Positions 9,516-21,466 of a DNA stretch of 64,000 bases are shown piece by piece. The position numbers and the translations under genes are program-made. The notes beneath the pieces are model-generated. The model did no database searches. It was not told the DNA's origin and worked only from the letters and a program-made list of their open reading frames with translations. Location of the stretch: assembly GCA_963975985.1 (NCBI GenBank), contig CAXBIY010000001.1, positions 179,020 to 243,019 of the forward strand, read 5' to 3'. How positions within the stretch are numbered: the first letter of the stretch is position 1; every line of letters starts with the position of its first letter. Origin of the DNA: an uncultured Gammaproteobacteria bacterium (GTDB taxonomy: Bacteria; Pseudomonadota; Gammaproteobacteria; JABDGN01).

Positions 9516-9971
9516 ATGATGTTAAATGTTGTACAAAATATTACTGCACACTACAGACAAGCTATCCTGATATTGCTGGCAAGCCTACTGTTTTCCGTGG
9601 GTGCTTATGCCGATACCAAGACACAAATTGAACAAAATATCGCCCCTTTAGCAAAATCACACCTTTCGGGAAAAAAAATTCAAGCGCGTGTGGTTAAAAA
9701 GCTGAGCCTCAAAGAGCAATTAGCGTTGGGTAAAAAGATCTATGTTCGCCGTTGTTCGTTTTGTCATGCCAGCGGTTCAGCCGGGGCACCAAAGGTCAAA
9801 GACACCGCCGATTGGCAGCTACGTGATAAAAAAGGCATGAAGCTGTTACTCGAACACGTTACCAAAGGTTACAACATGATGCCACCAAAAGGCACCTGTA
9901 TGAGTTGCGACCAACAAGAATTGCAGTCTGCAATTCTATATATGATGCAGTTGAGTGGTGTGAAACATTAG
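9516..9971 (+). CDS. Mono-haem c-type cytochrome (class I) with signal peptide
   Basis: CSFCH haem-binding motif, N-terminal signal peptide, distal MMPPKG methionine region. Confidence 0.75.
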   Translation: MMLNVVQNITAHYRQAILILLASLLFSVGAYADTKTQIEQNIAPLAKSHLSGKKIQARVVKKLSLKEQLALGKKIYVRRCSFCHASGSAGAPKVKDTADWQLRDKKGMKLLLEHVTKGYNMMPPKGTCMSCDQQELQSAILYMMQLSGVKH

Positions 9972-9974
9972 TCC

Positions 9975-10128
9975 CTTCGCCCCGCGGCTTGAGCGCGGGA
10001 TCCAGAAGATGTTAGCTATTTTATTTTCCTGGATTCCGTGGTCAAGCCACGGAATGACGTGTTCATTCAGTATTTGTTATGTCGTTCTAACATGTACCGT
10101 CATCCCGCGGCTTGACCGCGGGATCCAG
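9975..10128. repeat. Cluster of three ~30-bp REP-like hairpin units in alternating orientation (BIME-like)
   Basis: Units at 9975-10005, 10029-10059 (inverted variant CTGGATTCCGTGGTCAAGCCACGGAATGACG) and 10099-10128 (GTCATCCCGCGGCTTGACCGCGGGATCCAG). Confidence 0.85.
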
Positions 10129-10135
10129 AGTATCG

Positions 10136-10429
10136 TTAGCCTAGAATACTTTCATATAAATCATTCCAGCTTGGATTGGTTTTTTCAATGAGGGTAACTT
10201 TCCATTGTCGCTTCCACTCTTTTAATCGCTTCTCGCGATGGATTGCACTTTCAGCATTGTCGTGTGATTCATAATACACGAGGTTTTTTACGGCATACTG
10301 CTTGGTAAAACCATCGACTACCGATTGCTTATGTTGCCATATACGTTTTATTAAATTAGATGTCACTCCGATATATATAGTGCCATTTTTTTTACTTGCG
10401 AGGATGTATACAAAAAATCTTTTATCCAT
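10136..10429 (-). CDS. Small GIY-YIG nuclease-superfamily protein (UPF0213/YhbQ-like)
   Basis: FFVYILASKKNGTIYIGVTSNLIKRIWQHK GIY-YIG motif; start set at MDKR because the upstream 18 codons are translation of a REP unit. Confidence 0.75.
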   Translation of the reverse strand: MDKRFFVYILASKKNGTIYIGVTSNLIKRIWQHKQSVVDGFTKQYAVKNLVYYESHDNAESAIHREKRLKEWKRQWKVTLIEKTNPSWNDLYESILG

Positions 10430-10438
10430 ATTATTCTC

Positions 10439-10621
10439 CTGGATTCCGTGGTCAAGCCACGGAATGACGGGGTTGTTTGTCATCCCGCGGCATGACGAGG
10501 TTGATTCAGTATTGGTTAGGTCGTCCCAATATGTATCGTCATCCCGCGGCTTGACCGCGGGATCCAGAGCTGGTTAGCTATTCTGTTTACTTGGATTCTG
10601 TGGTCAAGCCACGGAATGACG
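10439..10621. repeat. Cluster of four REP-like units (two full, one truncated, one variant)
   Basis: Units at 10439-10469, 10479-10500 (truncated), 10538-10567 and 10592-10621. Confidence 0.85.
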
Positions 10622-10696: not shown

Positions 10697-12211
10697 CTAA
10701 TCCCGATCCAATCGTCGGTAATTAATGGCTTCACTCAAATGTGTGAGTTCAATTTTATCTTTACCCGCTAAATCAGCAATCGTCCTCGCGACTTTTAAAA
10801 TACGGTGATACGCGCGAGCAGAAAAATTTAATTGCTCAATGGTATCGTGCAAAAAATCTTGTTCAGTTGAGCCTAACTGACAGACTGTATCTAACTGTTT
10901 GCCCATCAGTGCCGCGTTTACTTTTTTATTGCGCTGCAGCTGCACGTTATGTGCCGCGATAACGCGCTCGCGTACCGTTGTACTATCTTCTGGTGTTTCA
11001 TCATGCAGTGTGCGAAAAAAATCTTTCGGTAAAGGCGGCACTTCAACTTGCATATCAATGCGATCTAAAAACGGGCCTGATAACCGTGCGCGATAACGTT
11101 GCACTTGTTCTTGCGTGCAACGGCAGGCTTTTTTGGGGTCGCTCATATAACCACAGGGGCAAGGGTTCATCGCCGCTATCAATTGAAAGTTAGCGGGGAA
11201 ATCGACTTGTCGTGCGGCGCGTGAAATCGTAATGGTTTTTGATTCCAACGGTTCGCGTAAACTTTCTAACACTTGGCGCGTAAACTCGGGTAGTTCATCC
11301 AAAAACAACACGCCGTTATGTGCCAATGAAATTTCTCCCGGTCGTGGTGGTGAGCCGCCGCCGACTAAAGCCACGCTTGATGCCGTATGATGCGGCGATC
11401 GAAATGGCCGTTGTTGCCAATGCTTCAGATCAAACCCCCGTAAACTAATCGATTGCACCGCGGCAATTTCTAATGCTTCTTGCGTCGAAATCGTCGGCAT
11501 AATGCTGGGCATGCGTGAAGCGAGCATGGTTTTTCCCGTGCCGGGTGAGCCCATCAACAATAGGCTATGACCACCACTGGCTGCAATTTCTAGCGCACGT
11601 CGCGCTTGGTATTGGCCTTTCACTTCGGCTAAATCTTTATCGTGTATTTGTGAGCTGGGTAATGTGGTGTGATCAAATAAGCCTAAGCGTTGTTGGCCAT
11701 TCAAATGCGCACTGACTTCAAGAAGATGCTCGGCGGGAAAAATCTCCAAGCCTTCAATTAAACTCGCTTCCGCTGCATTGCCTTTCGGCACAATGAGTTT
11801 GCGCCCCGCATTTTTGGTTTCCATCGCAAACGGTAAAATACCTTTAATCGCCCGCAATTCACCGGATAATGCTAACTCACCGGCAAACTCATACTCGCGC
11901 ACGCTAGCCAATGGCACTTGTTCCATGGCACTTAAAATGCCCAGTGCAATGGGCAAATCAAACCGCCCACCTTCTTTCGGTGTATCTGCCGGTGCTAAAT
12001 TAACCGTAATACGTCGACGCGGAAATTCAAACTGCGAATTCATCATCGCACTGCGCACGCGCTCACGACTTTCTTTCACCGCTGTTTCCGGCAATCCGAC
12101 AATCGAAAACCCCGGCAGCCCGCCGGTCAAATGTGTTTCCACCGTCACATACGGTGATTGAATACCATTTTGCCCACGTGTGTGAACAATGGAAAGTGAT
12201 AAAGTCGACAT
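10697..12211 (-). CDS. yifB: YifB/ComM-family Mg-chelatase-like AAA+ ATPase
   Basis: Lon-protease-like N-terminal domain, LLMGSPGTGKTM Walker A, C-terminal ChlI-like region, 504 aa. Confidence 0.85.
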   Translation of the reverse strand: MSTLSLSIVHTRGQNGIQSPYVTVETHLTGGLPGFSIVGLPETAVKESRERVRSAMMNSQFEFPRRRITVNLAPADTPKEGGRFDLPIALGILSAMEQVPLASVREYEFAGELALSGELRAIKGILPFAMETKNAGRKLIVPKGNAAEASLIEGLEIFPAEHLLEVSAHLNGQQRLGLFDHTTLPSSQIHDKDLAEVKGQYQARRALEIAASGGHSLLLMGSPGTGKTMLASRMPSIMPTISTQEALEIAAVQSISLRGFDLKHWQQRPFRSPHHTASSVALVGGGSPPRPGEISLAHNGVLFLDELPEFTRQVLESLREPLESKTITISRAARQVDFPANFQLIAAMNPCPCGYMSDPKKACRCTQEQVQRYRARLSGPFLDRIDMQVEVPPLPKDFFRTLHDETPEDSTTVRERVIAAHNVQLQRNKKVNAALMGKQLDTVCQLGSTEQDFLHDTIEQLNFSARAYHRILKVARTIADLAGKDKIELTHLSEAINYRRLDRD

Positions 12212-15566: not shown

Positions 15567-15580
15567 GTTTTTTCCTTCTC

Positions 15581-15750
15581 CCCTTGAGGGGCTTTGTTGA
15601 ATAAATCAACTTTTTCAGCTTCGTCATCCCGCGGCTTGACCGCGGGATCCAGTAACTCATTGATTTTTCTGGATCCCGCGGTCAAGCCGCGGGATGACGT
15701 GCTGTAAAGTTGTATAAAAGCTGATTTATTCAACAAAGCCCCTCAAGAGG
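15581..15750. repeat. Composite MITE-like element: outer inverted arms CCTTGAGGGGCTTTGTTGAATAAATCAA flanking two inverted REP units
   Basis: Arms 15581-15608 and 15722-15750 are reverse complements; REP units at 15623-15652 and 15669-15699; a related copy lies at 63850-63956. Confidence 0.8.
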
Positions 15751-21345: not shown

Positions 21346-21466
21346 CTGGATCCCGCGGTCAAGCCGCGGGATGACGAGTATTTTACCAAGCCGCGGGATG
21401 ACGAGTATTTTACCAAGCCGCGGGATACTGTTTTTGTCATTCCGCGGCTTGACCGCGGAATCCAGG
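21346..21466. repeat. REP-like cluster inside the yggS-proC intergenic region, with an internal 27-bp tandem duplication (AGCCGCGGGATGACGAGTATTTTACCA x2)
   Basis: Units CTGGATCCCGCGGTCAAGCCGCGGGATGACG and GTCATTCCGCGGCTTGACCGCGGAATCCAGG. Confidence 0.85.

Follow-up and report, generated by a model that had tools for sequence, protein, structure and literature searches.

A probable Ssn-family GIY-YIG gene and its hairpin repeats in an uncultured marine gammaproteobacterium

A short nuclease gene enclosed by inverted hairpin repeats raises two questions: whether the enzyme and the repeats belong together, and whether the enzyme spreads them. Such a gene lies in a 64,000-nucleotide stretch of DNA (hereafter the window) from an uncultured marine gammaproteobacterium (TARA scaffold) that has no close sequenced relative (best ComM match 72%), between a cytochrome c gene (9516-9971, plus strand) and a comM/yifB-type AAA ATPase gene (10697-12211, minus strand). 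An earlier note on this DNA had likened the arrangement to that of RAYT transposases between inverted REPs, and had proposed that a GIY-YIG nuclease in the equivalent position could be the enzyme that mobilises the repeat family.

The gene, here called ssn, is the sole real small gene in 9976-10620. It occupies 10136-10429 on the minus strand, with its ATG at 10429-10427 (start MDKRFFVYILASKKNGTIYIGVTSNL) and its stop codon at 10138-10136, and its 97 codons plus stop encode a single-domain GIY-YIG nuclease of 97 amino acids. The only Pfam domain is GIY-YIG (PF01541, E 3.9e-15, residues 5-77); there is no extra DNA-binding domain, and the AlphaFold model consists of one compact domain with the GIY-YIG fold (pLDDT 92). 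All of the family-invariant residues Y8, Y19, R29, H33, and E66 are kept, as is N85, which is also invariant in the family and lies C-terminal to the Pfam match; in an alignment of 35-38 homologues, Y8, Y19, and E66 are invariant or nearly so. The best structural matches of the model are 1zg2 and 6seh (UPF0213 BH0048/Slx1 fold). Comparison of sequence and structure with solved structures found none of an Ssn family member, and NCBIfam holds no model specific to the family.

The mechanically longest open reading frame is 115 amino acids long and begins at an ATG at 10483, 18 codons further upstream and inside a repeat unit. Because the homologues, which are 94-97 amino acids long, align from the internal methionine (ATG 10429), and a GGAG is located 7 nt upstream of it, the REP-encoded N-terminal extension is most likely not translated and an artefact of ORF calling. 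The suggestion that the N terminus is a translated REP unit thus holds for the 115-residue frame but not for the 97-residue protein. A sigma-70-like promoter composed of the hairpin loop TTGACC and a TAATAT was rejected as the promoter of ssn because the start codon overlaps with its -10 element, and because recurrence of the match simply reflects repetition of the unit.

A 30-nt unit (GTCATYCCGYGGCTTGANCNCGGRATCCAG) is matched 16 times in the window with up to three mismatches, compared to 0 in 100 shuffles, and seven of these matches fall within the 645-bp stretch 9976-10620, where none is expected by chance. Its layout is CGTCAT-stem-loop-stem-ATCCAG. Well-formed units fold as single-stranded DNA (ssDNA) hairpins with a 9-bp stem and a 5-nt loop (-9.6 to -11.9 kcal/mol, z -3.9 to -4.8), and the outermost units, at 9976 and 10591, are degenerate and fold weakly. 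No Rfam family was found for the hairpins, the sole Rfam match in the window being a tRNA-Arg. On the 5′ side of ssn, an L-type unit with a CCGTGG stem (GTCATTCCGTGGCTTGACCACGGAATCCAG, 10439-10468, minus strand; -9.6 kcal/mol, z -3.9) is 9 nt away from the start codon and shares the orientation of the gene, and its 3′ end together with GAG forms the Shine-Dalgarno sequence of ssn. An R-type unit with a CCGCGG stem (GTCATCCCGCGGCTTGACCGCGGGATCCAG, 10099-10128, plus strand; -11.9 kcal/mol, z -4.75) lies 7 nt past the stop codon, inverted relative to the first, and the two flanking units are 88% complementary over 32 nt. The earlier observation that inverted hairpins stand within 10 bp of both ends of the ORF is therefore confirmed, with the addition that the gene is on the minus strand, which had been left unstated.

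Read in gene orientation, the stretch consists of three tandem units, each composed of an L-type hairpin (CCGTGG), an insert, and an inverted R-type hairpin (CCGCGG). The three are parted by spacers (S2) of 38-40 nt, and the middle one bears ssn. Unit A (9976-10058) is an ORF-less doublet made up of an R-type unit (9976-10005), whose degenerate 5′ end abuts the cytochrome c gene stop, a 23-nt spacer (S1), and an L-type unit (10029-10058). Unit C (10538-10620), a second ORF-less doublet that is 87% identical to unit A, comprises an R-type unit (10538-10567), a copy of S1, and an L-type unit (10591-10620) with two mismatches and a weak hairpin. S2 lies between unit A and the gene-bearing unit (10059-10098), and repeat comparison places its second copy at 10500-10537; the duplicated segments, 10061-10130 and 10500-10569, are 90% identical. 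A truncated hairpin unit (GTCATCCCGCGGCATGAC, 94% to the reference) is located at 10479-10496 on the plus strand. Units A and C thus have a 23-nt spacer where the middle unit has the gene, and this outer spacer resembles the joined left and right junctions of the gene-bearing unit (GAGAATAATATG...TAGGCTAAC compared to GAAAATAAAATAGCTAAC). The similarity covers about 23 nt and suggests that units A and C may be ORF-less derivatives of the cassette or, alternatively, that the ORF may have entered a doublet.

SsnA of Neisseria meningitidis is a 94-amino-acid single-domain GIY-YIG protein (CDD cd10448) that binds the hairpin repeat NTS (CGTCATTCCCGCGMAVGCGGGAATCYRG) as ssDNA only and cleaves the forward strand alone, a few nucleotides upstream of the repeat (Chenal et al., Nat Commun 2025, PMC11893778). 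The same study reported that Ssn-related motifs (SRM) border the genes of Ssn homologues across bacteria, that four Ssn enzymes are confirmed in vitro (three from Neisseria and one from Wolbachia), and that SRM-rich genomes are enriched among symbionts (PMC11893778). The N. meningitidis system reduces transformation by NTS-bearing DNA, and restriction of incoming transforming ssDNA in Neisseria is the sole biological role demonstrated for Ssn (PMC11893778). Our protein is identical to the N. gonorrhoeae SsnA orthologue at 51 of 90 positions (57%) in a gapless BLASTP alignment (E 2e-38), and tblastn gave E 2e-27 at 93% coverage; these values lie within the homology limits of that paper (E < 1e-10 over >75% of the length of SsnA) and fall narrowly short, at 57%, of its stricter threshold of at least 60% identity (PMC11893778). 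By comparison, the match to BH0048 (1zg2) is marginal (phmmer E 0.033, 17.6 bits), and the UPF0213 label given to the protein in the earlier note is best dropped. In 94-residue numbering, Y6, Y17, and E64 of the gonococcal orthologue stand exactly at the residues mutated by Chenal et al. (PMC11893778) and correspond, at a constant offset of +2, to Y8, Y19, and E66 of the window protein. The gonococcal gene, which is surrounded by NTS units, was taken from the 2.17-Mb record NZ_CP119142.1, a "plasmid" in PLSDB that is chromosome-sized. In that record the orthologue (L087:1480-1776) has no in-frame ATG, and the ATG at 1495 leads into a stop after 10 codons; the gene may therefore be frameshifted in this strain.

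The repeats match the published motif as well. The SRM pattern HGTCWYN0-2YYVSBRHN0-5WNVSBRGN0-2RNCYNB, described for both the 5′ and 3′ gene flanks (PMC11893778), matched nine units in the window compared to 0.18 in simulations. The matches include 10098-10128, on the 3′ side of ssn, and 10537-10567, on the 5′ side; the unit beside the start codon, with its CCGTGG stem, fails the pattern at one stem position and fits the relaxed definition given below. The window unit is almost equal to the Neisseria NTS.

We then considered how often such genes and such hairpins occur together. A scan of one genome per species yielded 80 loci with homologues of 55-75% identity, spanning Gamma-, Beta-, Alpha-, and Deltaproteobacteria, Campylobacterota, Bdellovibrionota, Chloroflexota, and Patescibacteria. 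Using the published pattern, an SRM was present within 200 bp of the gene at 53 of the 80 loci, and on both sides at 33, with a density of 3.9/kb near the gene compared to 0.046/kb in the rest of the flanks (~85-fold). Most loci that failed this pattern carry obvious variants, for example with TCCGACG stems. A relaxed hairpin definition (GTC[AG][TC], a perfect stem of at least 6, and a C-rich tail) placed a hairpin within 200 bp at 69 of 79 loci (87%), on both sides at 38, at 5.1/kb near the gene compared to 0.075/kb elsewhere in the flanks (~68-fold). The co-occurrence across related genomes that the earlier note had suggested checking is thus borne out, and relatives almost always carry repeats, contrary to the condition under which that note would have given up its idea, a single-copy gene with repeat-free relatives. 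RAYTs and Neisseria ssnA are themselves normally single-copy.

The hairpins also vary together with the protein. The closest homologues (66-75% identity; L003, L005, L007, and L011) share the window variant CCGCGG-TCAAG-CCGCGG, and more distant ones are accompanied by CCGGCG, CCGACG, CCCGCG, or CTGGCG stems. Across 47 distinct 28-nt units, double-sided compensatory substitutions were found in seven of eight stem pairs while the flanks remained fixed; the stems are 99% paired, a figure that is partly built in because unit detection demanded perfect stems, which leaves the compensatory changes unaffected. In the same set, G2, T3, and C4 upstream of the stem and the C residues just after it are invariant or nearly so, and these are positions reported to be critical for cleavage and binding (PMC11893778). 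Several further features of individual loci were observed. Downstream of a Legionellaceae homologue (L004:4020-4160), the SRM variant CTGGATCCCGTGGTCAAGCCACGGGACGACGGGC forms a head-to-tail array of at least four copies, with a period of 34 nt. Three homologues of 103-104 amino acids (P0033, P0043, and P0061) do not end at the usual stop but continue into the downstream SRM, their C-terminal tail TGSRGQAAG being translated hairpin. Three loci (L042, L046, and L065) contain two ssn homologues each, 0.6-3 kb apart, so that some genomes hold more than one copy of the gene.

Across bacteria, this GIY-YIG family and the hairpin family are physically linked, and chance juxtaposition of ssn and the hairpins is excluded; members of the family bind and cut ssDNA at such hairpins (PMC11893778), and the pairing of enzyme and repeat first noticed at this locus accordingly stands. 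What is established here is the homology, the conservation of the catalytic residues, the match to the motif, and a linkage between gene and motif that is conserved and accompanied by covariation in the stems. We therefore consider it very probable that the gene is a member of the Ssn family, a predicted site-specific ssDNA endonuclease, and that the surrounding and scattered 30-nt hairpins are its cognate, NTS-like SRM. Cleavage of these hairpins as a site-specific ssDNA endonuclease is the best-supported function predicted for the protein; its ssDNA specificity, its cut position, and a restriction of SRM-bearing ssDNA are inferred from the literature on its homologues. The locus adds a member to the Ssn/SRM pairing described in 2025, and the pattern itself is not new.

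By analogy with the Neisseria and Wolbachia enzymes, the protein would recognise the hairpin only in ssDNA. Recognition would involve the stem as well as two fixed elements, the GTC on its 5′ side and the C that directly follows it, and the enzyme would hydrolyse only the forward strand, a few nucleotides 5′ of the motif. The ssDNA substrates might be, as a guess, incoming transforming or conjugative DNA, or intermediates of replication or repair. The SRM-gene-SRM cassette probably represents an ancestral package resembling an insertion sequence (IS) that, within bacterial families, is now mostly a stable gene at a single locus.

Beyond the ssn locus, SRM units are dispersed through the window. 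An SRM-like unit, a variant with symmetric ends, lies between convergent genes at 632-661 (plus strand), and another, with degenerate relatives on both sides, lies between convergent genes at 53174-53203 (minus strand). Pairs in -/+ orientation are found at 21346-21465 and 59877-60010; in the former, partial tandem duplications lie between the units, where the segment AAGCCGCGGGATGACGAGTATTTTACC is tandemly duplicated, a partial-unit duplication within the repeat cluster. Doublets in +/- orientation with 16-nt spacers occur at 15623-15698, between dinB and lexA and inside a larger palindromic element (-46.2 kcal/mol), and at 63880-63955, as part of the same composite element. The two composites (15575-15745 and 63851-63955) share an extra 27-nt left arm (TTGTTGAAYAAATCAAYTTTTWCAGCT), and at 15.6 kb the composite forms a palindrome of ~170 bp, exceeding the SRM doublet in size. 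The public TARA scaffold that bears the ssn locus (ERZ2783041 scaffold_102) ends at window position 15668, the inner edge of this doublet, evidently because the inverted repeat broke the assembly.

The principal alternatives differ in what, if anything, they take to move. Ordinary REP or terminator hairpins, possibly spread by a RAYT encoded elsewhere in the genome, might by accident have come to stand in clusters on both sides of a GIY-YIG gene, and the location of the units would suit this, as every one in the window is intergenic and several lie between convergent genes. We regard this explanation as extremely unlikely given the 68- to 85-fold enrichment of hairpins beside homologues in 79-80 unrelated genomes and a stem variant that follows protein relatedness. 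In addition, the genes adjoining the other SRM sites in the window yielded no HUH/RAYT domain, no Y1_Tnp, and no other transposase, and the occupation of both flanks of one gene, with eight sites among ~56 intergenic spaces, has an estimated p of ~0.02. A second possibility is that the ORF alone is mobile and invades pre-existing SRM doublets in the manner of a free-standing homing endonuclease gene. Units A and C do resemble an empty unit B, as the gene-bearing middle unit may be called, that lacks precisely the ORF, start and stop codons included, and both ORF ends show short GGMTAA microhomologies; yet the resemblance amounts to ~23 nt, and in many genomes, including Neisseria and Gallionellaceae, the gene stands between doublets and not within one. 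The characterised cut, moreover, falls outside the hairpin on ssDNA and not in the spacer (PMC11893778), and the one insertion that we could trace, described below, brought both SRMs together with the ORF. This homing scenario is consequently improbable, though less remote than accident.

The alternative that deserves most weight is that SRM-ssn-SRM is an active, autonomous IS-like element driven by its nuclease, with the ORF-less doublets as MITE- or REPIN-like non-autonomous derivatives. Support comes from a Rickettsiales MAG (L048, 4899-5345), in which an SRM-ssn-SRM cassette of 375 bp has entered cysS 35 bp from the start of the gene, and the cysS start recurs on its two sides as a 35-bp direct duplication, whereas a relative whose CysS is 97% identical (L088, 2400-2600) has an intact gltX/cysS ATGA overlap with neither ssn nor SRM. 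This filled/empty pair shows that the cassette can insert as a unit; that Ssn catalysed the insertion is a hypothesis. Also favouring mobility, units A and C keep the L/R asymmetry, with a spacer that looks like the joined junctions of the gene-bearing unit. The context of ssn differs between families without shared synteny, and no synteny with the cytochrome c gene or comM was found among relatives at the 80 loci. Ssn is more conserved (best homologues up to 80% identity) than the housekeeping protein ComM (72% at most), the GC content of the gene is 36% compared to 43.5% for the window, plasmid-borne copies exist, and the IS analogy was raised by Chenal et al. themselves (PMC11893778). Against this, a flanking duplication was seen at just one of 33 testable loci (L048), and a general target-site duplication around cassettes was rejected, the other 32 being at null level. 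Gallionellaceae and two Methylophilaceae groups each hold ssn at one conserved locus within the group, with both flanks kept, a pattern that resembles domesticated, vertically inherited RAYTs. The window itself contains one copy, the exact protein is on record in one genomic context, and the phage search found no phage-borne copies. The S2 spacer is duplicated along with the units, which fits local tandem duplication and not independent insertions. To our knowledge GIY-YIG enzymes act on DNA by hydrolysis, without the covalent intermediates of HUH transposases, and strand transfer is not part of their chemistry. Because the flanking units are inverted and cutting is taken from PMC11893778 to be confined to the forward strand, the predicted cuts would fall on opposite strands, just outside the cassette, in contrast to IS200/IS605 and RAYT, whose excision takes place on one strand. 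On balance we judge an active element of this kind unlikely, although it is the strongest of the three competitors.

Two further observations concern the sites themselves. After insertion in L048, the SRM end together with GAG provides the restored cysS with a Shine-Dalgarno sequence. Among relatives more distant from L048 (L089 and L090: 1345-2504), the junction between gltX and cysS is occupied by a brnT/brnA toxin-antitoxin pair plus another ORF, and this junction seems to collect small cassettes. For the window, different genes lie downstream in the nearest ComM relatives (67-72% identity), which were rejected as an empty site, being too distant.

The spreading of repeats by Ssn, as proposed for this locus at the outset, is thus a hypothesis, and one that Chenal et al. 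had already raised together with the RAYT analogy and the IS-like architecture (PMC11893778). The L048/L088 insertion and the ORF-less copies that flank ssn are two modest observations that hint at mobility. The most specific form of the idea, in which SRM-ssn-SRM is, or recently was, a self-mobilising minimal IS of ~370 bp that uses a hydrolytic GIY-YIG ssDNA nickase, and the dispersed doublets are its ORF-less derivatives, appears to us doubtful. If it were true, the mechanism would have left its trace in the target duplication, which at 35 bp is unusually long and possibly reflects filled-in staggered nicks on opposite strands, and the element would represent a new mechanistic class with a nickase in place of a transposase.

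Among known systems, the locus shares with Ssn/NTS (PMC11893778) a single-domain GIY-YIG protein of ~95 amino acids that has the same catalytic Tyr/Tyr/Glu and is 57% identical to the Neisseria orthologue, hairpins bordered by CGTCAT on the 5′ side and ATCCAG on the 3′ side, and repeats both beside the gene and dispersed intergenically. It differs in its host, an uncultured marine gammaproteobacterium, and in its stem-loop, CCGCGG-CTTGA-CCGCGG, with a 9-bp stem and a 5-nt loop in a unit of 30-31 nt, whereas the Neisseria unit is 28 nt long. Here the gene is enclosed by an inverted pair (+ gene -), with an ORF-less copy on either side of that pair, while in Neisseria the nearest units are arranged oppositely. 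The architectural analogy with RAYT/REP systems was apt, and is also drawn in the published work (PMC11893778): as in RAYT/REP-REPIN-BIME systems, a single-copy, mostly vertically inherited gene is bracketed by inverted hairpins that are also dispersed as singlets and inverted doublets, and both the inverted bracketing and the dispersed inverted doublets typical of RAYT/REPIN are present for ssn. The enzymes, however, are unrelated in fold, the GIY-YIG hydrolase here lacking the Y1_Tnp domain of RAYTs, which are HUH Y1 enzymes with a covalent tyrosine intermediate, and RAYT/IS200 enzymes act on both ends of one strand, whereas Ssn cuts are predicted on opposite strands.

The GIY-YIG fold is shared with UPF0213 (YhbQ-BH0048) and with the nuclease domain of Slx1, a structure-specific nuclease that works with Slx4, but identity to these proteins is 16-26% and they are not known to be associated with hairpin repeats. 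Homing endonucleases of the I-TevI type and Penelope-like elements, the latter of which make target duplications of variable length, likewise tie a GIY-YIG nuclease to the spread of an element. Their enzymes carry extra DNA-binding or reverse-transcriptase domains and cut double-stranded DNA, whereas Ssn has a single domain. The protein reaches 21 bits with TIGR01453, the model for group I intron endonucleases, whose cut-off is 56, and this places it outside the homing endonucleases.

Two nearby genes are of note. The comM/yifB helicase is linked to natural transformation in other bacteria, but its adjacency to ssn is probably coincidental because it is not conserved in any homologous locus. 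On the other side, 6896-9370 (plus strand) encodes an 824-amino-acid protein with a long run of ankyrin repeats, and long ankyrin-repeat proteins are typical of host-associated or intracellular bacteria. The presence of this protein together with SRMs fits the reported enrichment of SRM-rich genomes among symbionts.

The association of Ssn with SRM, published only in 2025, was here recovered independently from raw sequence, indicating that the pattern can be recognised by eye. The filled and empty sites, together with the ORF-less tandem copies, provide concrete substrates for testing how the repeats multiply and what part Ssn has in it. With this locus, the known Ssn/SRM pairs gain one whose stem-loop is distinct, from a marine bacterium that may be host-associated, and each new pair of this kind is a candidate ssDNA restriction enzyme of new specificity.
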